From assembly GCA_010202845.1 (NCBI GenBank), contig CP047921.1, forward strand, positions 720,001 to 752,000: a DNA stretch of 32,000 nucleotides, read 5' to 3'. Below are positions 7,404-26,502 of this stretch, piece by piece. The stretch comes from Candidatus Saccharibacteria bacterium oral taxon 488 (lineage in GTDB: Bacteria > Patescibacteriota > Saccharimonadia > Saccharimonadales > Saccharimonadaceae). The notes below the pieces were generated by a model, which saw only the letters and a list, made by a program, of their open reading frames with translations, did no database searches and was not told where the DNA came from. The stretch's first letter is position 1, and each line of letters starts with the position of its first letter. The translations under genes and the position numbers were made by a program.

Positions 7404-8366
7404 TCAATCCCTCTTTAACATCACCATAAACGCTTCTGATGGAATGTCAACCTTGCCAAAGCGTTTCATGCGCTTTTTGCCGCGAGCTTGTTTGGCGAGA
7501 AGTTTCTTTTTTCGGCTGACATCGCCGCCGTAGAGGTAGCCGGTGACATCTTTGCGGTAAGCACCGATGTTTTCGCGAGCGATGAATTTGCCGCCAATTG
7601 CTGCCTGCAGTGCCACCTCAAAGCTCTGACGCGGCACCACGTCTTTCAGCTTTTTGACGATCTCACGACCCAAACCTGGCGCCTCCGAGCGGTGACACAT
7701 GACGCTCAGCGCATCAACCATTTCACCCGCCACGTAGAAATCCACCCGCACCAAATCTTCCGGCTGATAGCCCGCCAGTTCATAATTAAACGAGCCGTAG
7801 CCGCTGGTTACCGACTTCAATTGATCATAAAAATCCGTCAGCAAATTGGCCAGCGGTGCCGTAAACGAAATCAGTGCCCGCTCGTCGATGTAACTGAGGT
7901 TTTTTTGCCGACCGCGCTTGGCGACAATCAGCTGAATCACCGCACCGATATAGTCCTGCGGCACCACAATCTCACCATCAATCCACGGCTCGCGAACCTC
8001 GGTGATCTGCACTGGATCGGGCAATTCGCTGGCTGACTTGATGTCCAGCTCCTCGCCGTTGGTGAGGCTAACTTGGTAATCCGTGCTCGGATTGGTGACA
8101 ATAAGATCCAGATTATACTCACGCTCCAGCCGCTCACGAATAATATCCATGTGTAGCAGCCCCAAAAAGCCAATCCGCACACCATACCCCAACACTGGTG
8201 AATTCTCCGGCTCAAACTGCAGCGCCGAATCGCTCAGACTCAGCTTTTCAATAGCCTCCTTCAGATCATTGTAATCTTCGTTGGACACCGGGAAAAAGCC
8301 CGCGTAGACGAAGGGCTTGACTTCTTTGTAGCCGGGCAGGGGCTGGACGGTGATTTTTTCAGTCAT
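7404..8366 (-). CDS. lepA: elongation factor 4 (LepA), C-terminal half (domains III, V and the LepA C-terminal domain) as a separate ORF
   Basis: MTEKITVQPLPGYKEVKPFVYAGFFPVS...GFLGLLHMDIIRERLEREYNLDLI...GGDVSRKKKLLAKQARGKKRMK is colinear with E. coli LepA from ...[23 protein letters not shown] to the end. The G domain and domain II are missing; they are encoded at 19789-20865. Confidence 0.92.
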   Translation of the reverse strand: MTEKITVQPLPGYKEVKPFVYAGFFPVSNEDYNDLKEAIEKLSLSDSALQFEPENSPVLGYGVRIGFLGLLHMDIIRERLEREYNLDLIVTNPSTDYQVSLTNGEELDIKSASELPDPVQITEVREPWIDGEIVVPQDYIGAVIQLIVAKRGRQKNLSYIDERALISFTAPLANLLTDFYDQLKSVTSGYGSFNYELAGYQPEDLVRVDFYVAGEMVDALSVMCHRSEAPGLGREIVKKLKDVVPRQSFEVALQAAIGGKFIARENIGAYRKDVTGYLYGGDVSRKKKLLAKQARGKKRMKRFGKVDIPSEAFMVMLKRD

Positions 8367-8377
8367 AACTGCCTACT

Positions 8378-8386
8378 ATTATATCA
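8378..8386 (-). promoter_or_regulatory. extended -10 box TGATATAAT, 11 nt upstream of the lepA C-half ATG
   Basis: The minus strand reads TGATATAAT-AGTAGGCAGTT-ATG(8366). This is the same motif class as other apparently leaderless genes in the window. Confidence 0.4.
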
Positions 8387-8411
8387 GTTGAGCGTTTACC
8401 TACTCAACTGA
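8384..8411 (-). terminator. hairpin after the 803-aa gene
   Basis: TCAGTTGAG (8384-8392) / CTCAACTGA (8403-8411) form a perfect 9-bp stem with a 10-nt loop, 5 nt downstream of the stop at 8417-8419. There is no clear U-tract. Confidence 0.35.
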
Positions 8412-8416
8412 TCGCG

Positions 8417-10828
8417 TCAACGAATTGGTCCATGTGGAGGTGTGACTATTCCTGCCCGTATAGCCCTGACATATTTGCCCAAGCTGCCCGGCATGTCACG
8501 CCAAAATTCATCGTCATATCGCCCCGACAAGACATCTGCCAAACGCTTGTCCTGATAGTGCTCGATTTGCTCGTATAGCTCACACAATCGCCAGATGATA
8601 AGCTGGTCGCTGTAGCTTGTTAAGCCTACATGTTTTAGGTTGTTAAACTGACCAACTAGCTGACGCATAATCTTAATGTTAGTATCTTCTGTAGACAGCA
8701 AGTCACTCACGAACTCATTTATATCAAACTTTCCTAACGGCGGTTTAACTAGGCTTATAAACTCAATAAATCTCGGCAGACACTTCTTCTCCTTCGCCTC
8801 TTTCGCTAACTCACCAAAATCTGCTTCGACACCCCAATACAATTCTTCTTCCTCTACAGAATCATTAGTAACCAGCCTACCGTCTCCAAACACATCATCA
8901 AACTCACCGCCCATCTCCTTGACTAATGGCTCCGCAAAACGCTTGTATTCACGGAATAGTTCGACACCCTTCCCGTCTTTTATTAAACCATTGATGACAT
9001 CCATGCAGCTACTATCAGCACCGTATCCATAGAGATTACGGTAAATATCTAGCTGGTCTATGCCATAACGCTTTTGATAGCGTTCGTCTCGCGTAAAGAA
9101 TACGCCCCTATCATAGAAAAATACCTTAAGCTTCTCCGCCTGATCAATATGGCGATCAAGGACCAGTCCACCCAGTTTGTCAATAGCCAAAATACCATGA
9201 TAAGCTATAGTTTCCACGTCCTCCACAAAATCACGTTCCGCTCGTGCAGATTGCAGCTTAGCGATACCGCCGTTTTTCCAGAAATAGCTTTCGCCAACAC
9301 TACTATCAGCCCCAAACCACAGCATCATGATGTCCCTTAGGGACAGATCCTCCCCCTTTTGCTGCTTGGTACAAATCTCATCAATCTTTTCGATTGTATG
9401 TATGGTGTCCAATTTATCCTGACCATTAGATAATTCACCGATTCTCTCATGCAGTGCATCTGTCATACACGACTCAACTCGACAGTCATCGCCATCAATC
9501 CCCAAAATCATTTTTATATCACCACCTTCACCCAGACACATCATGATACGAGGAATATTGTATCTACCGGTTGTGAATACAAGTATCTTAGTGATATTTC
9601 TATGGCCAAAGGAATCGTAACTTGATAGTGCAACCTTATACAAAAAGTCATAAATAGAGCCTGAGTCACCAGGGAACCAGCCGGTACATTGACCCTCAAG
9701 TAACGCCTGCACCTCCTCGGCTGTACCTTTTTGGGGCGTGGAAGAATCCTTATACTTACAAATTATTTCATGCCACTCCCCTTGAGTCTCTCGACGTCGC
9801 TCTTGCCCTAGGCCTGTTCGGATCGCTACCTCCCTGCCATACAGCTCACCAAACTTAGCCGCCTCCAGTTCATCGGGCCTATATTTCCACAAAGTTTCAT
9901 ATACCGCCTCAAGCGCCGCAGGATTTACCTCTGGCAAAAGTCTCTTGCTACCAGTTCGGCGAACATCAAATGTTTTGGTTTGCGGATTAAACTCTCCTAG
10001 TTCTGGACAGGCATCGATCACATAGGACAAAAACCAGTCAGGATATCTCCCGGCCTCCAATGCCGCCTTCCACTCGCCCAGACGCCCAAGCTGTGCCTTA
10101 TGAAAGTTACCAACCAACTTAATCTGCGTATCATGATTGTACCAAGCTTCGTCAAGGCCGAATCGTTCACTCCAACGAGGCGACGAAGATGATAACTGAC
10201 GCAGCTCCTCTTCACTAGGCAAACTGTTGACAATCTTACTTTCGGCCACCGGTATCGACATAATATATGAACGATACGGATATCTGTCCGGACCAGTATA
10301 CCAGTTGGGCTTGGTGGTACTTTGCTGAGGCGGCAGTGGCGATTCTTCCTCCTCTAAGTCTGTTGTTTTACCTAGGATATACCGAGTTAGCAACCTCAGC
10401 TTCTTTGTATCGTCAGCCGGATTTTTTGAACCGTATACATTCCCCAGGCGGCTATACCTCTTCACCAGTATCTCCAGGTTGCCATCCCGCCATTCACTAC
10501 CTAGCCTAGTAAAGATATCGCTTGCGAGTAGTCGCTCCAACTCCTCTGGAGTAGCATGCTCAGTCATGACGTCAAATACTGCAAATATTCTCGCGCTTCG
10601 TTCCTGAGACTTCCAGCCCTCCTCTGGATCTTTAAACTCATCCAAAGATATACGGAGAGCTTCCGCCATTTGGCCAGCTACATCAAACGTGTCGGGCGCT
10701 TCTTTTCGAAGTTGCGCTACAACCTGACCCATCTTGTCAGCGGAAACATAGTCTTTGCGAAGCTCACCTTCTAGGGTCGGATCAAGAGCGGGTCTATCAG
10801 GTGTCTCCCGATATTTATCAATCATCAT
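8417..10828 (-). CDS. hypothetical protein, 803 aa (ORFan to my eye)
   Basis: Long uninterrupted ORF with TATAAT 8 nt upstream of the ATG. It is acidic and soluble-looking, with no TM helices and no motif I can assign. Confidence 0.7.
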   Translation of the reverse strand: MMIDKYRETPDRPALDPTLEGELRKDYVSADKMGQVVAQLRKEAPDTFDVAGQMAEALRISLDEFKDPEEGWKSQERSARIFAVFDVMTEHATPEELERLLASDIFTRLGSEWRDGNLEILVKRYSRLGNVYGSKNPADDTKKLRLLTRYILGKTTDLEEEESPLPPQQSTTKPNWYTGPDRYPYRSYIMSIPVAESKIVNSLPSEEELRQLSSSSPRWSERFGLDEAWYNHDTQIKLVGNFHKAQLGRLGEWKAALEAGRYPDWFLSYVIDACPELGEFNPQTKTFDVRRTGSKRLLPEVNPAALEAVYETLWKYRPDELEAAKFGELYGREVAIRTGLGQERRRETQGEWHEIICKYKDSSTPQKGTAEEVQALLEGQCTGWFPGDSGSIYDFLYKVALSSYDSFGHRNITKILVFTTGRYNIPRIMMCLGEGGDIKMILGIDGDDCRVESCMTDALHERIGELSNGQDKLDTIHTIEKIDEICTKQQKGEDLSLRDIMMLWFGADSSVGESYFWKNGGIAKLQSARAERDFVEDVETIAYHGILAIDKLGGLVLDRHIDQAEKLKVFFYDRGVFFTRDERYQKRYGIDQLDIYRNLYGYGADSSCMDVINGLIKDGKGVELFREYKRFAEPLVKEMGGEFDDVFGDGRLVTNDSVEEEELYWGVEADFGELAKEAKEKKCLPRFIEFISLVKPPLGKFDINEFVSDLLSTEDTNIKIMRQLVGQFNNLKHVGLTSYSDQLIIWRLCELYEQIEHYQDKRLADVLSGRYDDEFWRDMPGSLGKYVRAIRAGIVTPPHGPIR

Positions 10829-10836
10829 TGATCACG

Positions 10837-10842
10837 ATTATA
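10837..10842 (-). promoter_or_regulatory. -10 box TATAAT, 8 nt upstream of the 803-aa gene start
   Basis: The minus strand reads TATAAT-CGTGATCA-ATG(10828), with no Shine-Dalgarno. Confidence 0.4.
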
Positions 10843-10874
10843 CTACTTTTTAATAATTTGTCAATTATATTATG

Positions 10875-12578
10875 CTAGCAGGTTGCACCCTGGCGAGTTT
10901 TCTTCAGTATCTCAGCAATCTTCTCCTTTTGCTCGGGGCTGTAGAAATAGCCTAACGCTTTACTCATACCACCGCCTTTCCCCTTAGCACGGTATCGTGA
11001 CGGCTGTCCAAAATTGGGGTCGTTCCTTATTAAACTATCAACTATCCTATCAAATAGAGGGGCACTACAATGTAACTCACGCATGATCTCTTTTTTTACT
11101 TGATACCCTTCAGGAGCCAACTCCGTATAGCCTTCACTTCTGAGATACTTACCTATCTTATCAACTTGCTCCGGTGACAAGCCTTCACGAATTCTCACCT
11201 GACCACTTTCAGCGACAAATCTATAGATTTCAGGCCGTAGGTTCAGCAAGTCCATGGCATCTCTCACCAATTTCAAACCCACCCCAAGGCGCTTTGTTGC
11301 CGTACTTATCATGGCATATCCCTCTGGTGGTGGAGGCGCAAATAACCCATTCTCCTGTGCTTTTCTCATAATCATTGCCTGCTGCTCCGGACTATAAAAC
11401 TCGTGCACCTGACCAGAACGACACTTTATACCATCAGATAGGACACCAGCTTTTTTAAGTTCTCTTGCTATCCTTATCAGTGCCATCACTGTCACATCTA
11501 CAGTTTTGGCGAGAGCAGTGATTGTCAAATACCCCTCTGGGGGCGGCTGTGTAAACAACCCTCTCTCCTCAAGCCTTTTTCGTATTACTTCAACCTGCTC
11601 TTCAGTAAAAATTGATTGCTCTTCTCCATACCAATCTCGCTTAGCTACACATCCCAACAAACCCTCCTGATTCAATTCAGCAATGTGTCTTACGATGGTG
11701 CGATACACTACTCCAAACTTAGCTGCCAATTGATTGGCATTCATCATCCCCTCTTCATTCGCCTGAGGGGGATTTAGATAATTACCCCCGCGCCGGGTAT
11801 CCACCCCAGCTGATTGCTGAATATCATTCGCTAGCGCCTCCACTAGGTGCGGCACAAACTGCTTGTCGCAGCGTACCGATACACCACAGTCTGGATATTG
11901 CTCCATCACCCCCGCAAGCTGCGTTTTCGTACAGGTAGCCAGCTTTGCCCGCTCTTCTTCTGGCAGCCGCGTTGTATCAAATACAAAGGTACCGTTACCG
12001 TAGGCGTCACAAATTAGCACCGTCCGCTCGAGCGGTGGGATATTCACCTCATGGTATGGCTCTTGGCGCATCATCGCTGTCTCCACTGACCCACGACGAA
12101 TCTGTAATGCTTCGCCGCTCGGCTCAATACCAAATTCATTTGCCAACACGAATAGCAGTGTTTTCAGCCGGGGTTGGCGAGTCGCCCTCTCACGGTGGGG
12201 CGCCTCGGACACACTGGCGGTAGGCCCGGGCCGCTCATCGGGTGGCACAAAGACATGGTCAGTCGATTCAATCTGGCCAATAACCGTATCAATAGCTATG
12301 AGCTGCTCCGCTTTGTCAGCAATATGGCCAAGCAACTCATTGAGCGGCTCTATGCCGTAGTAAGCAAACACCGCATTCTCCCTTTCACCAGAATTGTCTA
12401 GCCAAATCGTTGGCTGATGGTTGTATACTTGCACCATATCATTAATTAGCTGGATCAATTTATCCAAGGCAGCCTCAGCGTAGGTATCGACATTTTCAAC
12501 CGTCAACGGTTGATTAATAATTTCCTCTACACTGCTTGCAAAGTCCTTGCCATGATCAATACTACCGAGTCGCTCCAT
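10875..12578 (-). CDS. hypothetical protein, 567 aa, with four tandem ~71-aa HTH-like modules in the C-terminal half
   Basis: Modules at roughly aa 270-346, 347-417, 418-488 and 489-560 each follow the pattern (P)PEGY-x-helix-turn-helix-like segment-...-(Y/L)SPEQ-x3-I-x6-G. They resemble MerR/excisionase-type HTH units. The N-terminal 270 aa is unassigned. Confidence 0.7.
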   Translation of the reverse strand: MERLGSIDHGKDFASSVEEIINQPLTVENVDTYAEAALDKLIQLINDMVQVYNHQPTIWLDNSGERENAVFAYYGIEPLNELLGHIADKAEQLIAIDTVIGQIESTDHVFVPPDERPGPTASVSEAPHRERATRQPRLKTLLFVLANEFGIEPSGEALQIRRGSVETAMMRQEPYHEVNIPPLERTVLICDAYGNGTFVFDTTRLPEEERAKLATCTKTQLAGVMEQYPDCGVSVRCDKQFVPHLVEALANDIQQSAGVDTRRGGNYLNPPQANEEGMMNANQLAAKFGVVYRTIVRHIAELNQEGLLGCVAKRDWYGEEQSIFTEEQVEVIRKRLEERGLFTQPPPEGYLTITALAKTVDVTVMALIRIARELKKAGVLSDGIKCRSGQVHEFYSPEQQAMIMRKAQENGLFAPPPPEGYAMISTATKRLGVGLKLVRDAMDLLNLRPEIYRFVAESGQVRIREGLSPEQVDKIGKYLRSEGYTELAPEGYQVKKEIMRELHCSAPLFDRIVDSLIRNDPNFGQPSRYRAKGKGGGMSKALGYFYSPEQKEKIAEILKKTRQGATC

Positions 12579-12585
12579 GTACGAT

Positions 12586-12594
12586 ATTATAGCA
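12586..12594 (-). promoter_or_regulatory. extended -10 box TGCTATAAT, 7 nt upstream of ATG 12578 (leaderless)
   Basis: The minus strand reads TGCTATAAT-ATCGTAC-ATG, with no Shine-Dalgarno. Confidence 0.5.
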
Positions 12595-12775
12595 TCTTAT
12601 ACTATTATTGTAAATAGTGGGCCCTCTCAATCACAAATAACCACCTTAACCCAGCCACATATTCTTTACTGAATCCCATAATGGCACACTCATGTCTTTA
12701 TCAAATTGAAAATTTAGTTCTCATTAGTGGATTATCGGGTCGGCAAGGGCGCTCAATCCTCTATAATAATGTCTT

Positions 12776-13744
12776 TTAATAGGTCGGTTTAGAATAAGCC
12801 TGCTGTTCGCCATAGCCGATGCGTAGCAAAATAGTCGGATATTCTCCGGCCAGACCCAGTGTCTTTGCCATTTCTGCGGCAATTTCTGGCTGCTCATTTG
12901 GCTGGTTCAGATAGGCATGAGCGATCCCAAGCTCCGTGGCAGTCAGCAAGAAACGCTGCAGCGTCCGACCCAAACTCACCCATTCGCACCGACTATTTTC
13001 TCTCGTCGTAAAAAGAACCAGATGAGAAGCCGATGCTATCTTTTCGCGATCGGCCTTATTCTGCGTCTTAGCATTGATAGCCATCGACATGATCGGCTCA
13101 GCCATCCAGCGCGGCACATTAGGCGCGCCAAACACAGCATAACTCAGCCCGTCAAGTGTTTGATCTTGATGCTTCTTGTTAAATCGCATCCAGCTTTTCA
13201 ATTCAGCCTTAAACGCCTCATTTTGCATTTGACGTACATTTCCTTGAAAGACACATTGTTCAATATCATGAAATTGCTCTGTTTGATGTGCGTAATAATG
13301 AACTGAGACACCCTTTTCATTGCTAACGGATTGTAGTTTCTTTAGTGCATCCGGAGCAATTTCCTCACCGGTATAAATGCTACGATTAATCTGCCGTGCA
13401 TCTATCTGTTCGAACAATGGACTCGGCTTGATACCAGCATCTTCTGTAAGTGAAATCGTGATAACTCCCGTATCACCAATTGAAATGGTAGATTTATAGC
13501 CCTTGGTTTGCGCTGCCAAGCAGAGGTTCTCGGCTGCACAGCCCAGACTCACGAATAACTCCCTGTTGTCAGGGTCGACTACTGGTAGCTTTCTGTCAAA
13601 ATCAGGATAAATTTCTACCGCCGACTCGTTCTGACGAAATTTCCACGGCTGAGTATTATGGCCTGACGGCGCCTTGACAGCTTGCGCAACCAAAAATTCA
13701 AAGCTAGCTGATGATATGTTGTTACTGCGAGACATTCTTACCAT
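12776..13744 (-). CDS. Acg-type (double-domain) nitroreductase family FMN oxidoreductase
   Basis: The N-terminal AVKAPSGHNTQPWKF motif and the ~320-aa two-lobed length match the Acg/Rv2032-like nitroreductase family. The start is ambiguous (TTG 13756, ATG 13744 or ATG 13735). Confidence 0.7.
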   Translation of the reverse strand: MVRMSRSNNISSASFEFLVAQAVKAPSGHNTQPWKFRQNESAVEIYPDFDRKLPVVDPDNRELFVSLGCAAENLCLAAQTKGYKSTISIGDTGVITISLTEDAGIKPSPLFEQIDARQINRSIYTGEEIAPDALKKLQSVSNEKGVSVHYYAHQTEQFHDIEQCVFQGNVRQMQNEAFKAELKSWMRFNKKHQDQTLDGLSYAVFGAPNVPRWMAEPIMSMAINAKTQNKADREKIASASHLVLFTTRENSRCEWVSLGRTLQRFLLTATELGIAHAYLNQPNEQPEIAAEMAKTLGLAGEYPTILLRIGYGEQQAYSKPTY

Positions 13745-13832
13745 AATTCTACCCAATACACGAGCCTTCCCATCTCGTTAGCTACTTCTTATAACCAAGT
13801 ATACTCACCCTATAGGAGCGAGGTCAATCAAT

Positions 13833-13943
13833 ATCGCCAAGACTAAGCTTTCAGCCATTCTTCTTGAAATCATTGTAATCCTCGTTAGATGCCAGGAAAA
13901 AGCCTGACTATCCTACTTACACCATTCTAACCGCCTGAGTCAT
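13833..13943 (-). pseudogene. lepA: decayed copy of the first ~135 nt of the lepA C half (junction remnant C')
   Basis: The minus strand starts with ATGACT, as the real C half does. It then reads ...GGCTTTTTCCTGGCATCTAACGAGGATTACAATGATTTCAAGAAG..., which aligns to lepA 8229-8366 (GFFPVSNEDYNDLKEAIEKLSL). It carries an internal deletion, a 1-nt indel and an in-frame TAA. Confidence 0.75.
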
Positions 13944-14031
13944 GACCTTAGGCGGGCGAGAGTGTTCTATGTATTGCCAGACAGATGTCGCAGGCTAGAT
14001 TGGTCTATATTACCAACTCGTATGCATGTTC

Positions 14032-16647
14032 CTATACGAGCCTATCTAGCCCCTGTCCAAGTTTGATACTGTAAGGATAAGCTGGGTCAAAAACTTCTGC
14101 GCGTTCAAAATCGATCGGCCGCATTGATGCAATACGGTATTGCCCATTATCATCCCTGCTATACTCAATGATAAAATCTTTCAAACGCCATGGTTTATCA
14201 ATCCCTGTATCATGCCGTACGGTCTCAGCGATGTCTTGTATGCGCGAAAGGGCGTCAGTCATCAGCTCTCGCTGATTTGACTCCGGCACAGCATTGTCCA
14301 CAAAGAAATTGCGTACCGTTCGCCCGCTCTCGCCATTTATCTTCTCCATCACAACAAAACCTTGTTGCCCGTTCGTAAAGACCCGAGCAATTGGCTTTGG
14401 CGCGTCAACGCCAAGCTTGCGTAGCAACAAAAGCGCCTCGAACTCATCGACTGGCCCCCGACGCTTTGCCTCCACGACATTCTTCACAATCACCTCGGTG
14501 TCGCCAGCAAGCGATAGCCCAAAAACTGCCTCACCAGGATACGGATCGTTTGGGTTCGCTATTTTGAGTGATGTCGCCGACTGCAGTAGTTCGGTGCCAA
14601 TATCAGGACTTGAGAACAGTTCGGATAACTGGCCTTTTACTGCCTCACTATAACTACTGTCGATCCTCATTTCTCGCTGATTTTCCAGGCTTCTCACTTC
14701 GTAACCCAAGTTAACCGGCTCCGTGTTTTTTAGCTCGCGAGTATAGTAATGCCGGTGCAGAGCTAGCTGTGTCATACGAAAAGCCAGACGTTCACTGGGG
14801 CTAGTCGGTCGACTATACGGTTCCAACCGGCCATCTTCAGTGCGATACAAACCCCCTGCTGACTCTTCGTCCTTGACATTGTATTCTATAGTATCTACTA
14901 TATTATTTCTTTCCAGCTTGTCACCTTTCAGACCCAGCACCGTTCTTGGTCGGTCTCTTGCACTAAGCAGTCTAATTCGGCTATCATAATCATAGTCTGA
15001 CCCTGGCACCCCTAGCACGCTCATGATATCGTCAGGAATCGTTCCTGTAAATCCAGTGTCATAGTAATGGGCGGCGTCTGGGTGCTGGATATGAGAACGC
15101 AGGTACTCGCCTTTTACTTCGTCGTTAAAGTTATTGCAAAACTTTCGCGGATACACAAGGTAGGTAGGAAACTCTATGAGCGACCCGCCTGTCGCACGGC
15201 TACTCATACCGAGTTTGCGGCGGCGGGCGTAGAGTTGAGCACGGCGCCCCACGTACGCATAGACACCGTCACGACCGAGGAATACTTCTTCAAATTCTCT
15301 CTCGCCTATCCGCTTAGTGTCCCACTCGGCAAACAATCTATCGTAGTAGCCAGTATCAACTTCAAGTACCTGATTGAATATTTTAGCCGCTCTTTCCAGG
15401 GTTTCAGATATATCAATCTCTCCCATCTCGGCTATATAGTCTGCCACCAGCCTGCGGTAGGTCGGCCAGGCATCACCCGTCTTGTCTCCTCGCCCACCGA
15501 ATAACTCTTGGACATACCGGTCTCCGTACCGCGACGCTATATCCTTCTGCAGTTTATCGTAGGCCTGTTTAATAGTCTCTCTCAATCTCCTATCATCTTC
15601 GGTTTTGGGAAGTCGCAAACGTCGATCGGCCTGAACCGCTCTTTTGTGAAATTCCGTCCCCGGTCGAGATGATGTCACATGCTCTATGTCACCCGCCTCG
15701 TCTGCGTATGGATGATATTTCACTATACCGCGCAGCTCTGGCTTGAGTTCGGCAATATATGCACGTAACCTAGACGCCTCTTCTGCACCAATAAGCCCCT
15801 CCAGGTCAAGCTGAGTAACTTTTTGCGCAGTCGAGTAGTGGTTTGCACATGCCCACAATACAGTACTCCGTGCGACTGTGTCCATACCGTAGTATGATAA
15901 ATGACCAAGGACGGCATCTGCTAGATCGTCGCTTAATTTTATCTTATCTATACAGCTAAGGACTATTTCTGGGGCAGTTTCACCAAAGACATATACGCAT
16001 TGCAGTACCTGTAATTCATAGCCGGCATCAATGAGTTCGTAGGCGATACTAGCATCAAGGCCGGTAAAGTTCTTGAGGTAGCCAGCAACTACATCACCGT
16101 GGCCGGTATTGATGATTTTGTGGGCAATTTCATTGTGATCGAGACCAGTAAAGTTCTTGAGGTAGTAGGTGACTGTCCCACAATTACCAGCATCGATGAG
16201 TTTGTGGGCAATTTCATTGTGATCAAGGCCGGTGAAGTTCTTGAGGTAGTAGGCAACTGTCCCACTCTCACAGGCATCGATGAGTTTGTGGGCAATACTA
16301 GCATCAAGGCCGGTGAAGCTATCGAGGTTGCGGGCAACTGCCCGACCATGGCCGGCATTGATGAGTTTGTGGATGTCATGGTTCGTCAATTGATGGTTAG
16401 AATTCTCGCTTACCAGAGTCTCAAGCAACTCATCAACAGTGTATGTATCTTCTACCGCCTGCTTAAACCCTCTCTCACCATCTCGCGCAACATGACCAAC
16501 AAGAGAATTCTCGACACAAGAAAGACCTTCGTGATTCTCTGCCCGACCCGCAGAGTCCCCTGTCAAGTCTTCAGAGTCCAATGAACCTTCGGTTATGTAT
16601 TCAGAATCATCTACTCTTATAATTTTTCCTGTTTCGTGACCGTTCAT
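14032..16647 (-). CDS. hypothetical multidomain protein, 871 aa (N-terminal 27/28-aa helical repeats, C-terminal kinase-like region)
   Basis: AAGGAAAAA Shine-Dalgarno. Aa ~90-230 carry 4-5 repeats of HKLIDAGxxGxVxxYLKNFTGLD(HNE/AS)IA. The centre has FLGRDGVYAY ... YYDTGFTGTIPDD, faintly HAD-like. The last ~170 aa carry VIVK, EFEALLLLRKLG, VVMEKINGES and PIDFERAE, spaced like an APH/choline-kinase/RIO-type fold. Confidence 0.7.
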   Translation of the reverse strand: MNGHETGKIIRVDDSEYITEGSLDSEDLTGDSAGRAENHEGLSCVENSLVGHVARDGERGFKQAVEDTYTVDELLETLVSENSNHQLTNHDIHKLINAGHGRAVARNLDSFTGLDASIAHKLIDACESGTVAYYLKNFTGLDHNEIAHKLIDAGNCGTVTYYLKNFTGLDHNEIAHKIINTGHGDVVAGYLKNFTGLDASIAYELIDAGYELQVLQCVYVFGETAPEIVLSCIDKIKLSDDLADAVLGHLSYYGMDTVARSTVLWACANHYSTAQKVTQLDLEGLIGAEEASRLRAYIAELKPELRGIVKYHPYADEAGDIEHVTSSRPGTEFHKRAVQADRRLRLPKTEDDRRLRETIKQAYDKLQKDIASRYGDRYVQELFGGRGDKTGDAWPTYRRLVADYIAEMGEIDISETLERAAKIFNQVLEVDTGYYDRLFAEWDTKRIGEREFEEVFLGRDGVYAYVGRRAQLYARRRKLGMSSRATGGSLIEFPTYLVYPRKFCNNFNDEVKGEYLRSHIQHPDAAHYYDTGFTGTIPDDIMSVLGVPGSDYDYDSRIRLLSARDRPRTVLGLKGDKLERNNIVDTIEYNVKDEESAGGLYRTEDGRLEPYSRPTSPSERLAFRMTQLALHRHYYTRELKNTEPVNLGYEVRSLENQREMRIDSSYSEAVKGQLSELFSSPDIGTELLQSATSLKIANPNDPYPGEAVFGLSLAGDTEVIVKNVVEAKRRGPVDEFEALLLLRKLGVDAPKPIARVFTNGQQGFVVMEKINGESGRTVRNFFVDNAVPESNQRELMTDALSRIQDIAETVRHDTGIDKPWRLKDFIIEYSRDDNGQYRIASMRPIDFERAEVFDPAYPYSIKLGQGLDRLV
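16022..16400 (-). repeat. in-frame tandem repeat, about 4.5 units of 81/84 bp, inside the 871-aa gene
   Basis: Unit starts are at 16022, 16103, 16187, 16271 and 16352. Units 16103-16186 and 16187-16270 are near-identical at the DNA level. Confidence 0.9.
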
Positions 16648-16881
16648 TTTTTCCTTTTACCTATTGATGATTATGGTCTATATTGTAATATATAGCCACT
16701 GAACGCCGCAAGTATTCTATTCTAAAGTGTCTTACTCGCAGGATTAGGTTTGCAGCTCAGAGAGGACTGTTCCGCCATATTTAGCATGGCGTATCTAACG
16801 ACTATGGTCATGGTGGATCGGCTGAGGGGATCGGGTCTTGACATGGTTTTTCAATCAGCTTGATTTAGCAAAATACTTGGT

Positions 16882-17196
16882 TTACTCCCACCGCCGCGTG
16901 CTATTGATCTCGTGCTTCTCAAAATACACTTCCGCCAAATTAACATCAAACCGATTCGCCAGCTCCATCAAATAATTCAGTACATCCGCAAATTCCTCGT
17001 GCAGATTATCATGGTTATCAGGTCTTTTTTCTCCCTTAAATCCCGTCTCTTTGCGAATCGCTTTCGCCAGCTCGCCAACCTCCTCAGTAAACAATAAGAA
17101 TACTTCGGTAACAGAATTTTTATCCCATCCTTTTTCTTTACACGTTTGATCGAGGTGTTTTTGTAATTCAGTTAAGCTGATTGTTTGTGGATTCAT
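16882..17196 (-). CDS. MazG-like nucleoside triphosphate pyrophosphohydrolase (small, single domain)
   Basis: 104 aa with the EEVGELAKAIRK ... EEFADVLNYLMELA motif pair typical of the all-alpha MazG/NTP-PPase fold. GAGGAGAAG Shine-Dalgarno. Confidence 0.8.
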   Translation of the reverse strand: MNPQTISLTELQKHLDQTCKEKGWDKNSVTEVFLLFTEEVGELAKAIRKETGFKGEKRPDNHDNLHEEFADVLNYLMELANRFDVNLAEVYFEKHEINSTRRWE

Positions 17197-17240
17197 ACTT
17201 CTCCTCTATTTATCTCGTTATCGACGCGAATGGCTTGCGT

Positions 17241-17849
17241 TTATAATTCAACATCCGGCAAGTCCTTCAACTTCTTGCCGTCAAAGCAAAAATACGCTGC
17301 ACCCTGATAGGCACCGCTATTGTTGGCTTGATTTTTATCTTCGAAGATCTTTCGCACTAGCGGCGACAGTAGCCACCGCTGTCCGCCATACTCAACTTCA
17401 CGTTCGCCGACAACTTTAGCGACAATCGTCTGGTCTTTGCTAAAGACAATTTTATCGCCGTTTTTGAGGCCTTTTCGATAAAAGCTAAACTTTTGATTAC
17501 TGTTCTTGGCTTTGGTGATTTTATCAAATTCCGCTTCTTTATTTTTCTGCTCCGGAAAGATCACCTCACCCTCAAACGACAGCAGCAGTTGTCGCACCAA
17601 ATCATAATCAAGCGCGAAAAGCTCGCTACTACCGACTCGATGCTTGGCAAATATTTCGTGCAGTAATGTTTCCTTTTCGGAGTAGTCAGCCACCTCGATC
17701 GCGAACAACCGCTTCAAACCAACCACATTGTAGTAGCCGTTCGCCTCGAGAAAACGCATCCGCTCTGGGTATTGCTTGGTTTGCGCCTTGCCGATTTTGA
17801 TAAGGCCTGACACTGCGGTGGTCATGACGTAGATGATGCCTTTGCTCAT
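17241..17849 (-). CDS. GIY-YIG / T5orf172-family nuclease-like protein with a C-terminal extension
   Basis: The N terminus GIIYVMTT...GLIKIGKAQ...ERMRFL...EKETLLHEIFAKHRVGSSELFAL matches the T5orf172/GIY-YIG-like pattern. AAGGAGGA Shine-Dalgarno. The C-terminal ~90 aa is unassigned. Confidence 0.7.
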   Translation of the reverse strand: MSKGIIYVMTTAVSGLIKIGKAQTKQYPERMRFLEANGYYNVVGLKRLFAIEVADYSEKETLLHEIFAKHRVGSSELFALDYDLVRQLLLSFEGEVIFPEQKNKEAEFDKITKAKNSNQKFSFYRKGLKNGDKIVFSKDQTIVAKVVGEREVEYGGQRWLLSPLVRKIFEDKNQANNSGAYQGAAYFCFDGKKLKDLPDVEL

Positions 17850-18019
17850 TATAATTCCTCCTTATAACTAATATTCTACACTACTTTCACAGAACCTAGC
17901 TTGTTGAAGAATCACTATTTATAACCTGAGAGGCCTCCAGCCGGTCTCTCAGTTGAAAATATTGGCTGGCAGACACTTTGACCGGGTCGTCTGAAGTATC
18001 AATCACAGTTTACTCTGCA

Positions 18020-18142
18020 TTTTCTCAACGTAACCGTATCAGCTACCCGCGCCTCACGAGTGGTGTTGAGGTTGGTAATAATGTAGCCGGGTAGCAGTGT
18101 TTCCTTTCCGGAATATTCAGTCGCCCCAATCGCTTCATGCAT
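18020..18142 (-). pseudogene. lepA: decayed copy of the lepA N-half 3' end (junction remnant N'3)
   Basis: It translates to MHEAIGATEYSGKETLLPGYIITNLNTTREARVADTVTLRK, then unrelated CRVNCD*. By hand alignment, 54 of 69 nt are identical to lepA 19807-19875. Similarity stops at the same Lys codons as in the real gene. Confidence 0.8.
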
Positions 18143-18192
18143 AATGTTGTAGCATTTTATTTTATAAATAATGGCAACTCATTCTTAACTCA

Positions 18193-18870
18193 CTATGCTT
18201 TCGGCAAAAAACCGCGCGCCACGAGCGCCTGCCAAGCCGTGTCTGCCGAGAGAGATGACGGCTGAGGCGTTGAAAATCCCTTATCGGGATAGATCTTTAT
18301 CCGCTCGTAATCACCCAGCATCAACGTCAACATCATGACGGCACTGCCATAGGTTACCTCATATAAGCGATAATATGCCTCTAATGTTGTCGGCTGACTA
18401 GTTACATACAGTCGCGGCCGCGGGTGCGGCCACTGAGCCTCGGCGGTTGCCAAAAATCGACGCGTCATATACGGTTTATGAATTAAAATGATATCCTCAG
18501 CCTGGATCGCCGCCCCCGCCAGCAGCTGAGCCGAACGGATGATGTTTTCACCGGTATTAGCAGCTTGGTGCTCAAACAGAATCGCCGAGTCGGGCACCGC
18601 CAAGCATTGGAGCTGTCGTCCTAGCAGTGTCGCTTCGGTTTCCGTGGCCCTATGATAGGGATTAGCAAATCCTGACACCACAATCCATGAACTAATGCCC
18701 GCATGATACAGCTCGGCTGCTCGCTCGGCGCTATCGACCATAGCTCCCGCGCCACCGATCACGATAGCATCCGCCCGCACCGGTAGCCGACTCTCAACAC
18801 AAAGATATTCCCATAGCACATGAAGATGGTGCCAGTCTTGATCAGTGAGAGCTAGCTGACTACGCGACAT
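18193..18870 (-). CDS. YdcF/DUF218 (ElyC/SanA/YdcF) family protein
   Basis: 225 aa with AIVIGGAG...VVSGF...EATLLGRQL...ANTGENI, characteristic of the DUF218 family. The start overlaps the tail of remnant N'2. Confidence 0.75.
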   Translation of the reverse strand: MSRSQLALTDQDWHHLHVLWEYLCVESRLPVRADAIVIGGAGAMVDSAERAAELYHAGISSWIVVSGFANPYHRATETEATLLGRQLQCLAVPDSAILFEHQAANTGENIIRSAQLLAGAAIQAEDIILIHKPYMTRRFLATAEAQWPHPRPRLYVTSQPTTLEAYYRLYEVTYGSAVMMLTLMLGDYERIKIYPDKGFSTPQPSSLSADTAWQALVARGFLPKA

Positions 18871-18886
18871 GTGTTAGCTCTCGGTG

Positions 18887-18995
18887 TTTTTTCAATGTCG
18901 CTGTATCGCCCACCCGCACTTCACAGTTGATGACGATGTGGCCAATTTCACCGGTGTCCAGCGATGGGCTAGGATCATACCCTGACTGAGATTGA
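18887..18995 (-). pseudogene. lepA: decayed copy of the lepA N-half 3' end (junction remnant N'2)
   Basis: It lies inside the 78-aa ORF 18860-19096: ...[32 protein letters not shown], then unrelated HRELTHVA*. Hand alignment to lepA 19808-19905 gives a 37-nt block with 6 mismatches, a 12-nt gap and a 49-nt block with 6 mismatches. Confidence 0.85.
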
Positions 18996-19145
18996 TTATG
19001 ACACCGCTGCCAAAACTCCGGTACCACAAACGTGACCGACGACGCTGCGAAAGCAACTGCCAAATGCGTGTTGTATTCTCTGAAGAAGGATGTCATTCAT
19101 TCAGTATAGCATCTTACAAAGATGGAGTGACATCCACAGGGTTAC

Positions 19146-19784
19146 TTACGTTTCAACTTCCTTACGAGATATCCACACGACCATCATAATAGACCAGCCA
19201 AATAGTGACACTTCCGACACCACTGTCAATGGCACCGAGACTTCGCCCGCATAGTATGTGCCGACGACCTTTAGCAATGCAACACATACGCTTATTAGGA
19301 TAATCAGCCGAGATTTCGTAATAATTGCTACCGCAATAACACATGCAGACAATGCCAGCGCCATCCAATGTAGTCCCGCAAACAGTTGACTCGCCGATAA
19401 TACACTTGTTGCTGAGTCAATCGGCAATCCATTCACCGGATAAACGAGTCGGCCAAGCGCCATCATTGCGTAAAATGCGCCAATTGCCACAACAATACCT
19501 AGAGCAAGAACTACACCCATGCTAACAGGGTGGCGCCTCCTGAGATTACCGTACAATACCACAACAACGGCTAGCAACATTGACGACCCACATGCTAGCA
19601 TCTCATCTGCTATCTGAAAAGTAGTCTGGTGCTGTTGCACCCACGCCATCACACCCGAAATGTCTGCTGAAGGTATCGGCAGTGACATTGCAATACTAAT
19701 GCAGGCCGCGGCAAGCAAACCAAAACCCATCAACCATACGATACTACCAATATACGAAATACGCCGACTGCCTTGCTTCACCAC
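19146..19784 (-). CDS. hypothetical integral membrane protein (about 6 TM helices)
   Basis: 212 aa and strongly hydrophobic. GTG start with AAGGAG 7 nt upstream; that RBS lies in the last codons of the lepA N half. Confidence 0.6.
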   Translation of the reverse strand: MVKQGSRRISYIGSIVWLMGFGLLAAACISIAMSLPIPSADISGVMAWVQQHQTTFQIADEMLACGSSMLLAVVVVLYGNLRRRHPVSMGVVLALGIVVAIGAFYAMMALGRLVYPVNGLPIDSATSVLSASQLFAGLHWMALALSACVIAVAIITKSRLIILISVCVALLKVVGTYYAGEVSVPLTVVSEVSLFGWSIMMVVWISRKEVET

Positions 19785-19788
19785 TATC

Positions 19789-20865
19789 TCACTCCTTTGT
19801 CATATACTTTTTCAACGTCACCGTATCACCCACCCGTGCTTCACGCGTAGTCTTCAAGTTGGTGACGATGTAGCCAATTTCACCGGTATCCAGCGATGAG
19901 TCAGGGATCATGCCAGGACTAAGATGGCCAACTTCTAGTGCCAGCCCGTTAGCGCCAGTCGCCATCATATGAATTGCTTCACCTTTTTTGATTTGGCCGT
20001 CAACCACCCGCACATACAAAATCACCCCGCGGTAATCGTCATAATAACTATCAAAAATCAGTGCCCGCGTCGGGTCGTCCGGCTGGCCAGTTGGCGCTGG
20101 AATTCGCTCAACAATCGCCGCTAAAACTTGGTCAACATTCTGCCCAGTTTTGGCAGAAATATGAATAATGTCGCTTTCATCGCAGCCCAGCAAATTAATC
20201 ACCTGTTTGGACACCCGTGGCACATCAGCGGCCGGCAAATCAACCTTGTTCAGCACCGGAATGATCGTCAAATCCTGCTCCATCGCCAGGTATACATTCG
20301 CCAGCGTCTGCGCCTGAATGCCTTGGCTGGCGTCAACCACCAATACCGCGCCCTCGCAGGCCTGCAAACTACGCGACACCTCATAACTAAAGTCAACGTG
20401 ACCAGGCGTGTCGATGAGATTGAGATCGTAGACAGTTGGCTGAGCCAACCCATTCACACCGACATCTGCACAAACCCGAGAGTCAGACTGCGCTAAGCGG
20501 GTGGCAGTCGATGGGGTAGCGCCCGCTTCTGAAGAAATCTCTGATTTTTCAGAAGAAGGGGCGGATCGACTGGCAGGACCCGCGTCTAGCGACCGACGTG
20601 AAGACTCTGCAAGAGTCTTCGACGATGGGAGCGGTGATGCGCCGCTCACCTCCACCTCCTGATATTCATATTTCATCCGCACTGGCGCGAGCTTAATGGT
20701 GATCCCCTTCTCGCGCTCCAAATCCATACTATCCAGCAGCTGCGACTTCATCTCGCGCTTCTCCACCGTCCCCGTCATCTCCATCATCCGGTCCGCCAGC
20801 GTCGATTTACCGTGATCAATGTGAGCGATGATACAAAAATTACGAATACTGGTCAGCGGTTTCAT
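19789..20865 (-). CDS. lepA: elongation factor 4 (LepA), N-terminal half (G domain + domain II) as a separate ORF, with a ~72-aa low-complexity insertion
   Basis: [15 protein letters not shown] (G1), GITIK (G2), DTPGHVDF (G3) and NKVDL (G4). It is colinear with E. coli LepA up to ...VGDTLTL, then reads KKYMTKE*. The start overlaps the murJ stop (TGATG). Confidence 0.92.
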
Positions 20866-26425: not shown

Positions 26426-26502
26426 TGGTAGCACCGGGTGGACCCGAACCACCGACCTCAGGCTTATGAGTCCTGCGCTCTAACCAGCTGAGCTACGGTG
26501 CC
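26426..26502 (-). tRNA. tRNA with anticodon CAT, elongator tRNA-Met-like (tRNA-Ile2/lysidine not excluded)
   Basis: The minus strand reads GGCACCGTAGCTCAGCTGGTTAGAGCGCAGGACTCATAAGCCTGAGGTCGGTGGTTCGGGTCCACCCGGTGCTACCA. It folds as a cloverleaf with a GTTCGGGTC T-loop and an encoded CCA. Confidence 0.9.

Follow-up and report, generated by a model that had tools for sequence, protein, structure and literature searches.

Three accessory genes between the two pieces of lepA in an oral Saccharibacteria genome, with a T5orf172 nuclease as the likeliest agent of the break

A three-gene block inside a divided lepA

We analysed a stretch of 32,000 nucleotides (nt) from Candidatus Saccharibacteria bacterium oral taxon 488 (the window; coordinates are positions in it unless another locus is named), with emphasis on three adjacent genes, termed block M3, which lie within an interrupted copy of the translation factor gene lepA. 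All genes of this part are on the minus strand. The T5orf172/GIY-YIG nuclease gene (17241..17849) encodes a 202-aa member of the PDC-S57 family with an N-terminal nuclease domain (residues ~1-95) and a conserved C-terminal domain (~115-200). It is followed by the gene for a 104-aa MazG-type all-alpha nucleoside triphosphate (NTP) pyrophosphohydrolase (16882..17196) and by that for an 871-aa protein (14032..16647), which is designated BIG here. The intergenic gaps are 44 nt and 234 nt, and Shine-Dalgarno-like purine-rich sites (AAGGAGG, GAGGAG and AAAGGA) precede the three genes. An earlier note on this DNA had described three co-oriented open reading frames (ORFs) with Shine-Dalgarno sites of their own, encoding a GIY-YIG/T5orf172 protein, a MazG-like protein and a protein with a kinase-like C-terminus; the layout is present as claimed and all three domain calls hold.

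The lepA gene encodes the translation factor EF4, an essentially universal translation GTPase. Its N-terminal piece in the window (lepA-N; 19789..20865, minus strand) encodes 358 aa comprising the G domain and domain II (Pfam GTP_EFTU, 8.9e-53, and GTP_EFTU_D2), and its C-terminal piece (lepA-C; 7404..8366, minus strand) encodes 320 aa comprising domains III-V and LepA_C (Pfam LepA_C, 3.6e-43, and EFG_C) and starts MTEKITVQPLPGYKEV. The interruption between the two pieces extends over 8367-19788 (11.4 kb). In addition, decayed copies of the lepA junction lie within this gap. One copy of the lepA-N 3' end (18884..18982, minus strand; residues 318-354, direct repeats D3/D6) was found by tblastn with E=1.2e-7. 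A second such copy (18020..18139, minus strand; residues 314-353, tblastn E=2.5e-7, with the tail ...VADTVTLRKCRVNCD and a stop codon) forms the left boundary of M3; it corresponds to repeat D5 (79% over 68 nt), and the same remnant is present in two of the related loci described below, L006 and L071. The right boundary of M3 is a decayed copy of the lepA-C 5' end (13833..13955, minus strand; residues ~6-46, repeat D4, 75% over 72 nt), in which tblastn against the window locates lepA-C residues 22-46 at 13833-13907 (E=1.9e-4), and which aligns with the spacers between BIG and lepA-C of loci L001, L017 and L009. The flanking of M3 by lepA remnants, as previously described, is thus borne out on both sides. 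Repeat D7 was also considered as a piece of T5orf172 joined to the left lepA remnant, which was rejected; tblastn reads the whole of this stretch as lepA-N residues 314-353.

In order to place the window among its relatives, about 100 related loci (numbered with L) were compared. The first sample of loci, against which the window proteins were searched by tblastn, was seeded on BIG and is biased by that seed; hence, 80 metagenome loci seeded on lepA-C were added, 16 of which show a split between domains II and III (with the whole gap, or the lepA-N end, in view). In the clade of the window the domain II/III linker is the point at which lepA is divided into two intact ORFs, with gaps of 0.9-11.4 kb overall; such loci include L001-L019, L039-L063 and L071. 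Within the lepA-C-seeded sample, all loci with a lepA-C of at least 92% identity and enough flank are split (gap of 887-8417 bp), and loci with a lepA-C of at most 89% identity mostly contain a continuous gene. The same domain II/III breakpoint is found in L065 and L115, where lepA-C is only 82-85% identical.

The breakpoint is identical in all loci split between domains II and III (site B), reading ...TL[K/G]KY and a short variable tail on one side and a variable head and QPLPGYKEV on the other. Thus, the upstream piece ends with ...VGDTVTL(K/G)KY plus the short variable tail, and a variable M-x-x-x head opens the downstream piece, followed by (V)QPLPGYKEVKPF. Across the junction, identity to the unsplit LepA proteins of other Saccharibacteria in the protein database reaches no more than 81%, and these proteins read ...VGDTITVKRAHATTPLSGYK... 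or ...VGDTITVKRAHATTPLSGYKHVQPFVYAGFFPVS... there, and the unsplit junction of a relative reads ...GDTITVKRAHATTPLSGYK.... Literature searches turned up no account of lepA being split in Saccharibacteria.

Both halves of lepA are under strong purifying selection. The ratio of nonsynonymous to synonymous substitution rates (dN/dS) against relatives is 0.05-0.14 for lepA-N and 0.02-0.045 for lepA-C, as compared to 0.02-0.04 for DnaK, and dozens of independent contigs, as well as one complete genome, carry both halves intact. The length of the interruption (up to 11.4 kb) and the decayed duplicate fragments could be taken as signs of a decaying pseudogene, with the whole region being junk DNA in a dead gene. 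Since the dN/dS values of both halves (0.02-0.14) are in a range comparable to DnaK, lepA is not a pseudogene; the intact halves in dozens of contigs and a breakpoint exactly in the interdomain linker likewise speak against decay, which we find hardly credible. From its conservation, the two-piece lepA appears to be functional, working as two polypeptides. Rejoining of the pieces by a split intein or intron finds no support, as only a few residues separate the linker from the end of the one piece and from the start of the other, and neither has an extension the size of an intein.

Two further features of lepA were seen. The G domain of lepA-N carries an insertion of about 78 aa of low complexity, rich in Ser, Ala and Pro (~20430-20665, residues 68-145), which is absent or of another length in relatives, where the tblastn match splits at residues 67 and 146. 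In L003/L014 the 3' end of lepA-C occurs a second time (positions 16791-17535; residues 212-319, 98% identical), fused behind a partial guanylate kinase ORF, with an IucA/IucC-like cluster between lepA-C and this second copy. The lepA 3' end may be a second recombination hotspot.

Distribution and protein features of the three genes

The adjacency of the three M3 genes, and the lepA scars on both sides, had led the earlier note to suggest that they travelled together as a unit and form a candidate conflict system. The comparison of the related loci does not sustain this claim. T5orf172 is present in 3, an intact MazG gene in 3 (with remnants in 2 more) and BIG in 1 of the 16 lepA-C-seeded loci with the domain II/III split, and the full trio is present in none of them. 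The complete trio was found only in the window, in L006 (CP128407.1) and in L007, that is, in the window's own lineage. When the BIG-seeded and lepA-seeded loci are taken together, each of the three genes is also seen alone and every pairwise combination is seen. By tblastn, five loci (L001, L002, L009, L017 and L019) contain lepA-N, T5orf172 and BIG with no MazG, and L003/L014 contain lepA-N, a DUF6994 gene, MazG, a gene for a 142-aa protein and BIG with no T5orf172. The array of the window (212-aa membrane protein, DUF218, T5orf172, MazG, nitroreductase, helix-turn-helix protein and 803-aa protein) is repeated in L071, where BIG is precisely missing between MazG and the nitroreductase gene. 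Distant BIG homologues (41-51% identity) stand alone amid housekeeping genes, with no T5orf172, MazG or lepA nearby. As every partial combination is seen and none of the 16 lepA-seeded loci contains the trio, the three genes are independently distributed.

BIG adjoins lepA-C in the loci seeded on BIG. The idea that it always abuts lepA-C, or forms a constant core of the island, was rejected since most split-lepA islands of the lepA-seeded sample are without BIG. Sampling seeded on the flank thus overturned the impression gained from sampling seeded on the cargo.

A cooperative anti-phage or anti-plasmid system, in which the kinase/repeat protein would act as sensor, the nuclease as effector and the MazG-type protein in nucleotide depletion, would fit with three adjacent, co-oriented genes bracketed by lepA remnants, with a block kept in L006 and L007, and with a nuclease that is a defence candidate in PADLOC. 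It is nevertheless very improbable, because the genes occur separately in related islands (T5orf172 and MazG in L071, where BIG is absent) and, elsewhere, BIG homologues are found singly amid housekeeping genes. Moreover, neither BIG nor MazG has a PADLOC hit, no phage homologue of BIG was found, and gaps of 44 and 234 nt with separate ribosome-binding sites do not demand an operon. Judging from these distributions, M3 brings together, in one lineage, three genes that are mobile or inherited separately, and it is not a three-protein machine. Adjacency and common flanking scars did not, in this case, amount to a system.

The MazG-type protein scores above the Pfam cut-offs for MazG (PF03819; 29.4 bits against 22), dUTPase_2 (33.6 against 22.9) and PRA-PH. 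Its relatives of known structure are YpjD (2gta, E=2.7e-7) and DCTPP1, and the metal-binding EExxE...ExxD pattern is present as EEVGELAKAI and EEFADVLNY, which align to YpjD. It is not an orthologue of the E. coli MazG, since it falls far below the cut-offs of the NCBIfam equivalog models. Its gene has a dN/dS of 0.059. The protein would act as a stand-alone NTP/dNTP pyrophosphohydrolase in the cleaning or remodelling of the nucleotide pool.

BIG is a multidomain protein whose AlphaFold2 model, built with 34 homologues, has a mean predicted local distance difference test score (pLDDT) of 78.3. Residues 1-67 are disordered and acidic in this model. A region of four armadillo (ARM)-like repeats of 27/28 aa and further helices spans residues ~88-300, a central helical and alpha/beta domain residues ~330-650, and a RIO/Bud32-like kinase domain residues ~690-871 (14035-14580). 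The repeats (~88-230) form helix-turn-helix units which match designed armadillo repeat proteins in Foldseek, and they are encoded by 84-nt units of 70-76% identity at 16022-16386, so that the helical repeat array previously reported for this protein is confirmed at both the DNA and the protein level. Repeat copies vary from 3 to 21 among homologues, with the variability focused at a few positions. Many assemblies break within the 84-nt array (L008, L010-L013, L015, L016 and L020), with contigs that start at about residue 93. As contigs break inside the array, repeat counts from metagenome-assembled genomes cannot be relied on, and database entries of the gene are often truncated.

The sequence motifs quoted in the earlier note are all found in the translation of BIG, and its view that this domain combination matches nothing described holds, in that the protein belongs to no described family. 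No Pfam family covers the central domain, and its family comprises 185 cluster representatives among 1.84 billion proteins, some of which are stand-alone proteins of ~330-400 aa. Modelled alone, the domain reaches a pLDDT of 76.2 and a predicted template modelling (TM) score of 0.80, with no significant fold match in the Protein Data Bank (PDB; best Foldseek match SIS-like, E=1). Its invariant residues include D431, E441, D443, R446, E454, G458-R-D-G461, D530-T-G532 and R559-L-L-S562. The faint resemblance to haloacid dehalogenase (HAD) phosphatases once proposed for this segment was rejected; the domain carries GRDG in place of a DxD motif, has no Pfam hit, and aligns to two HAD proteins with an hhalign probability below 1%.

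The C-terminal ~180 aa of BIG are moderately supported as a two-lobed kinase fold by the structural model, all fold matches having E-values above 1e-3. Foldseek matches it to RIO1 (4otp; probability 1.00, TM-score 0.47, E=8.7e-3) and also to CK2, CK1 and Bud32, which backs the kinase-like C-terminus of the earlier note at the level of the predicted fold. Minimal kinases of giant viruses also match this region, with a TMt of 0.54 for a minimal kinase in BFVD. In the profile searches no Pfam kinase family is above threshold for the BIG C-terminus. APH over residues 734-820 is sub-threshold (17.8 bits against a cut-off of 23.2), as is a Kdo match in a homologue, and a profile search of the PDB gave weak hits that are mostly kinases (E=0.05-1.4). 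No variation is seen at E735, W820 and D824; 14 of 15 sequences have Lys at K722, the other having Arg, and D846 is kept in 12 of 15 remote members. K722, E735, D824 and D846 would correspond to the beta3 Lys, the alphaC Glu, the catalytic Asp and the Mg-binding (DFG-like) Asp. A canonical HxDxxxxN loop is not evident, as had been observed before, and the loop reads DKPWRLKDF. The central and kinase domains stay joined in remote members, while the type of repeat does not stay with them. From these features, the ARM-like array, whose length changes rapidly, probably serves to bind a target, and the alpha/beta and minimal kinase domains probably carry out an ATP-dependent phosphotransfer on the target held by the repeats.

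All named homologues of BIG are from Saccharibacteria, the closest genome being that of oral taxon 488 strain 106.1.1 (CP128407.1, 93%), and BIG evolves faster than its neighbours (dN/dS 0.17-0.24). This restriction and this rate, together with 3-21 repeats, variable surface positions and a disordered acidic N-terminus, would fit with BIG serving the epibiont lifestyle in host interaction or as an effector, instead of being an intracellular kinase, with its repeats shaped by an arms race with the actinobacterial host and its place in the island being incidental. However, the BIG sequence shows no evident signal peptide or transmembrane segment, and the high conservation of the central and kinase domains suggests an enzymatic core. 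We consider an effector role improbable. The BIG family offers an accessible target for the study of a new enzymatic domain tied to a minimal kinase. A 51%-identical BIG homologue lies in L005 (9214-18318) between two His_Phos_1 genes and by an alanine racemase gene that is called as two ORFs (195 and 191 aa); this may be another broken or duplicated-flank arrangement.

The nuclease and the break in lepA

The nuclease matches T5orf172 in Pfam (PF10544) over residues 4-89 with 27.0 bits against a cut-off of 20. Among 20 diverse homologues G4, Y7, K18, E29, N41, E65 and E76 show no variation, and conservation reaches at least 90% at R30 and R32; by analogy, the GIY, Arg and Glu positions of the nuclease core are the predicted catalytic ones. 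The C-terminal domain (~115-200) is conserved with no assigned family and is duplicated in the homologue P0206. For the 2071 homologues found, identity stays at ~70% across phyla, with Rickettsiales, Ignavibacteria and Nomurabacteria among them, and the dN/dS of the gene is 0.034-0.047.

At site B the T5orf172 gene lies behind lepA-N in some genomes and other genes lie there in others. It is located directly behind the lepA-N stop codon in L001, L002, L009, L017, L019 and L041, and the lepA-N tail in these loci is always YFTKE(T/I)K followed by the stop. A second Saccharibacteria lineage has its lepA split at another place, the boundary between the G domain and domain II (site A). Site A is empty in five contigs (L079, L081, L082, L084 and L089, at ~9700), in which the two pieces are joined by an overlapping stop and start codon, ...PKEI-TAATG-AAACCA... 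or TGATG. Exactly at this site, L083 (9093-9719) and L104 (~1100-1725) carry a gene for a 208-aa T5orf172 protein of the PDC-S57 type (PADLOC E=7e-44), so that the gene is polymorphic for presence and absence there. In L083 the T5orf172 start overlaps the upstream lepA stop and the T5orf172 stop overlaps the downstream lepA start, and in L104 the upstream lepA stop and the T5orf172 start abut with no overlap. A nuclease gene between lepA pieces, polymorphic in its presence and with stop and start codons at the ends of the element, is the signature of a free-standing homing endonuclease. The nuclease of the window also matches the 'homing endonuclease' family of PHROG (1.1e-6).

Insertion of homing endonucleases that breaks genes and supplies stop and start codons is documented (PMC3045599; PMC2677866), as in the phage Aeh1 nrdA gene split by mobE (PMC3045599) and in other 'fractured genes' (PMC2677866). 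The T5orf172 domain is the nuclease of the homing-endonuclease-derived proteins Odn and CapR in vibriophage ICP1 (PMC8263062, PMC8096241). By its gene context, the T5orf172 gene is most likely a free-standing homing-type endonuclease. In the mechanism we propose, the nuclease would cut near the lepA linker in genomes that lack the gene, and the gene would be copied in during repair together with flanking lepA sequence. The inserted DNA would give a stop codon to the upstream piece of lepA and a start codon to the downstream piece. Creation or maintenance of the fracture by the nuclease would thus provide a permanent landing pad for other DNA. There is a hint of recent horizontal transfer of lepA and T5orf172 together in their synonymous divergence from L017 (dS 0.33-0.41, as compared to 0.78 for DnaK), although dS differs greatly from gene to gene (2.2 for MurJ) and codon bias could account for the lower values.

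The same nuclease can be read as a defence gene. It matches the PADLOC family PDC-S57 with E=2.7e-58 (PDLC05040, residues 1-129) and E=5.8e-35 (PDLC05041, residues 2-198), and its relatives outside the window's clade usually lie beside type I or type III restriction-modification (R-M) genes, which upholds the conflict link that had been suggested for it. In L029, L030 and L035 (6001-6603) a T5orf172 gene of the PDC-S57 type starts 5 nt after the hsdR stop codon of type I R-M loci (Nomurabacteria, Saccharimonadales), and in L032-34 homologues are found near type III R-M genes. PDC candidates are single genes picked by guilt-by-embedding in or next to R-M, BREX or DISARM systems and are candidate defences (10.1101/2024.01.29.577857). 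No R-M gene is present among the genes identified between positions 219 and 22526 of the window, and no paper mentioning PDC-S57 was found in a literature search. The tight position behind hsdR resembles that behind lepA-N, which suggests that genes embedded in this way could be selfish insertions.

The main rival to our proposal makes T5orf172 a genuine defence nuclease that acts as a single gene, whether or not MazG assists it; it would merely have landed in the island and have no part in mobility, lepA having been fractured otherwise. The strong PADLOC match, the placement of relatives close behind hsdR (5 nt) or next to type III R-M genes, the strong purifying selection and high conservation across phyla, and the rarity of the family on phages and plasmids all fit with it. 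Nevertheless, PDC members are only candidate defences, a chance landing fails to explain the exact occupation of two lepA breakpoints, the overlap of stop and start codons and the polymorphism for presence and absence, and the tie of the gene to one lepA tail would be left unexplained. We therefore regard this account as unlikely, although it deserves more weight than any other rival considered here. Mobile and defence roles are not mutually exclusive and may coexist. A phage or plasmid origin was also considered and is not supported: BIG has no phage match, and the phage and plasmid matches of the nuclease are weak (26-45% identity).

We favour the reading that three independent accessory genes lie in a hypervariable island filling a fractured lepA of human-associated Saccharibacteria, with T5orf172 as the likeliest agent of the break, and put its probability at about 0.6. 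Several observations weigh against it. Pfam detects no NUMOD, IENR1 or HTH-type DNA-binding domain in the nuclease, and ~70% identity across phyla with a dN/dS of ~0.04 is unusually conserved for a selfish endonuclease. Its neighbours in other phyla are R-M genes and not lepA, which fits with a host-beneficial defence at least as well. The split is also seen where T5orf172 is absent (L039, L044, L049, L115 and others), so the nuclease is not needed to maintain it, and a causal role in the break is a reconstruction of past events from present-day sequences. For BIG, the kinase loop is non-canonical, with WRLKD in place of HxDxxxxN, and no fold family was found for the central domain.

The best-supported novelty of the window is the fractured lepA as a landing pad, rather than the trio. 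A wider proposal is that PDC-S57-type nucleases fractured lepA at two interdomain linkers, leaving a functional two-piece LepA and a permanent, integrase-free landing pad on which unrelated cargo builds up and is replaced, and that BIG represents a new kinase family, with named members only in Saccharibacteria, which carries an unassigned catalytic domain; taken as a whole we hold this tentatively, as possible but somewhat short of an even chance. If true, the gene-in-pieces mechanism would extend from phages to cellular chromosomes, and some of the defence candidates embedded in R-M operons would be selfish homing elements. A two-piece EF4 in a clade of human oral Saccharibacteria would also be a natural test of the autonomy of the LepA domains.

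Cargo of the island and comparison with known systems

The remaining genes of the interval between the lepA pieces are of a mixed nature. Directly behind lepA-N lies the gene of a 212-aa predicted membrane protein (ORF at 19146..19784, minus strand), which is also present in L006, L007, L048 and L071 and has no hit in Pfam, PADLOC or NCBIfam. It is followed by a DUF218-family cargo gene (18193..18870, minus strand; Pfam DUF218, 4.2e-17); in L060 such a gene sits between lepA-N and a lepA-N remnant. Downstream of M3 is an Acg-family flavin mononucleotide nitroreductase gene (12776..13756, minus strand; NCBIfam NF047509, 8.1e-90). Its left junction (window 13757-13955) is the same as L009 12613-12815 but for one base, GGCGAT as against GGTGAT before ATTGATTGACCTCGC. 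The nitroreductase gene thus represents a later cargo insertion, an event common to the window and L009 or transferred between them. Next to lepA-C are the genes of a 567-aa protein with repeated HTH domains (10875-12578, minus strand) and of an 803-aa protein with no family hit (8417-10828, minus strand), both cargo. These two are always paired, in the window, L006, L042 and L071 and as 32-55%-identical versions in L041 and L043, and they are, more than the trio, candidates for a genuine module, here of two genes.

Elsewhere the gap contains DUF6994 with a 183-aa gene, a SWEET-like protein, GrpB, several NUDIX hydrolases, a GT4 glycosyltransferase, an NTP-transferase, SDR and peptidase S51 proteins and DUF218. 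In L049 (7107-9959) the sole cargo is a 950-aa protein with a PolyA_pol/CCA-adding head and a Schlafen AlbA_2 domain, an architecture of conflict type. A family of 142-164 aa (MNNFKNFTEK...; 82-87% identical) was seen in L001 (9319-9789), L003 (9363-9791), and L044 and L053 (9394-9890), usually directly upstream of BIG, or of lepA-C where BIG is absent. This family, which has no Pfam or PADLOC hit, is missing in the window, and 234 nt of non-coding DNA precede BIG there.

Only the T5orf172 gene was matched when ten cargo proteins from split-lepA gaps were compared with PADLOC, which points to an island of the flexible genome in general and not to one devoted to defence. At the lepA site, neither an integrase nor a tRNA or Rfam element was found; the sole tRNAs of the window are at 26426 and 30364, and an Rfam match to AsrC (29 bits against a cut-off of 111) is sub-threshold and was taken as chance. 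Successive arrivals of cargo left decayed copies of the lepA junction, hence the remnants which bracket M3, and cargo from diverged donors whose integration was anchored on lepA homology would leave such remnants. The lepA break is a hotspot of accessory-gene exchange with no recognisable integrase, and it bears on the flexible gene pool of epibionts with reduced genomes and natural competence.

The closest precedents for the locus are Aeh1 nrdA with mobE and the fractured genes cited above. As in those cases, a conserved gene is present as two co-oriented ORFs with a nuclease gene between them, both pieces are retained, and stop and start codons lie at the ends of the element (overlapping in L083) with short new tails and heads. 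In contrast, the host DNA here is a cellular chromosome, the gene encodes a translation GTPase in place of a phage protein of DNA metabolism, and split inteins are absent. The nuclease belongs to T5orf172/PDC-S57 with no NUMOD, the gap has grown into a reshuffled multi-gene island in the window's lineage, and homing is putative. Odn and CapR of ICP1 share with the window nuclease the Pfam nuclease domain, the link to homing-endonuclease ancestry and the setting of mobile-element conflicts, but they differ in their C-terminal domains, and the window gene is on a cellular chromosome. To PDC-S57 the likeness is a strong full-length hidden Markov model match, with relatives elsewhere embedded in or abutting type I/III R-M loci, whereas the gene here sits in a split lepA with no R-M gene found over the interval given above.

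The island as a whole resembles the accessory and defence hotspots between core genes of P. aeruginosa (PMC10250203) in its fixed conserved flanks and in a content that varies between close relatives. Here, instead, the flanks are the two halves of one gene with no integrase or tRNA at the site, one of ten cargo proteins hits PADLOC, and decayed copies of the flanks bracket single cargo blocks. The MazG-type protein is like the single-domain all-alpha enzymes MazG, YpjD and DCTPP1 (RS21-C6) in its size, its Pfam families and the EExxE...ExxD pattern. Finally, the predicted kinase domain of BIG shares the ~180-aa two-lobed fold and the conserved Lys/Glu/Asp/Asp positions of RIO/Bud32 and APH/Kdo kinases, and differs from them in its DKPWRLKD loop and in its fusion to an alpha/beta domain and ARM-like repeats.

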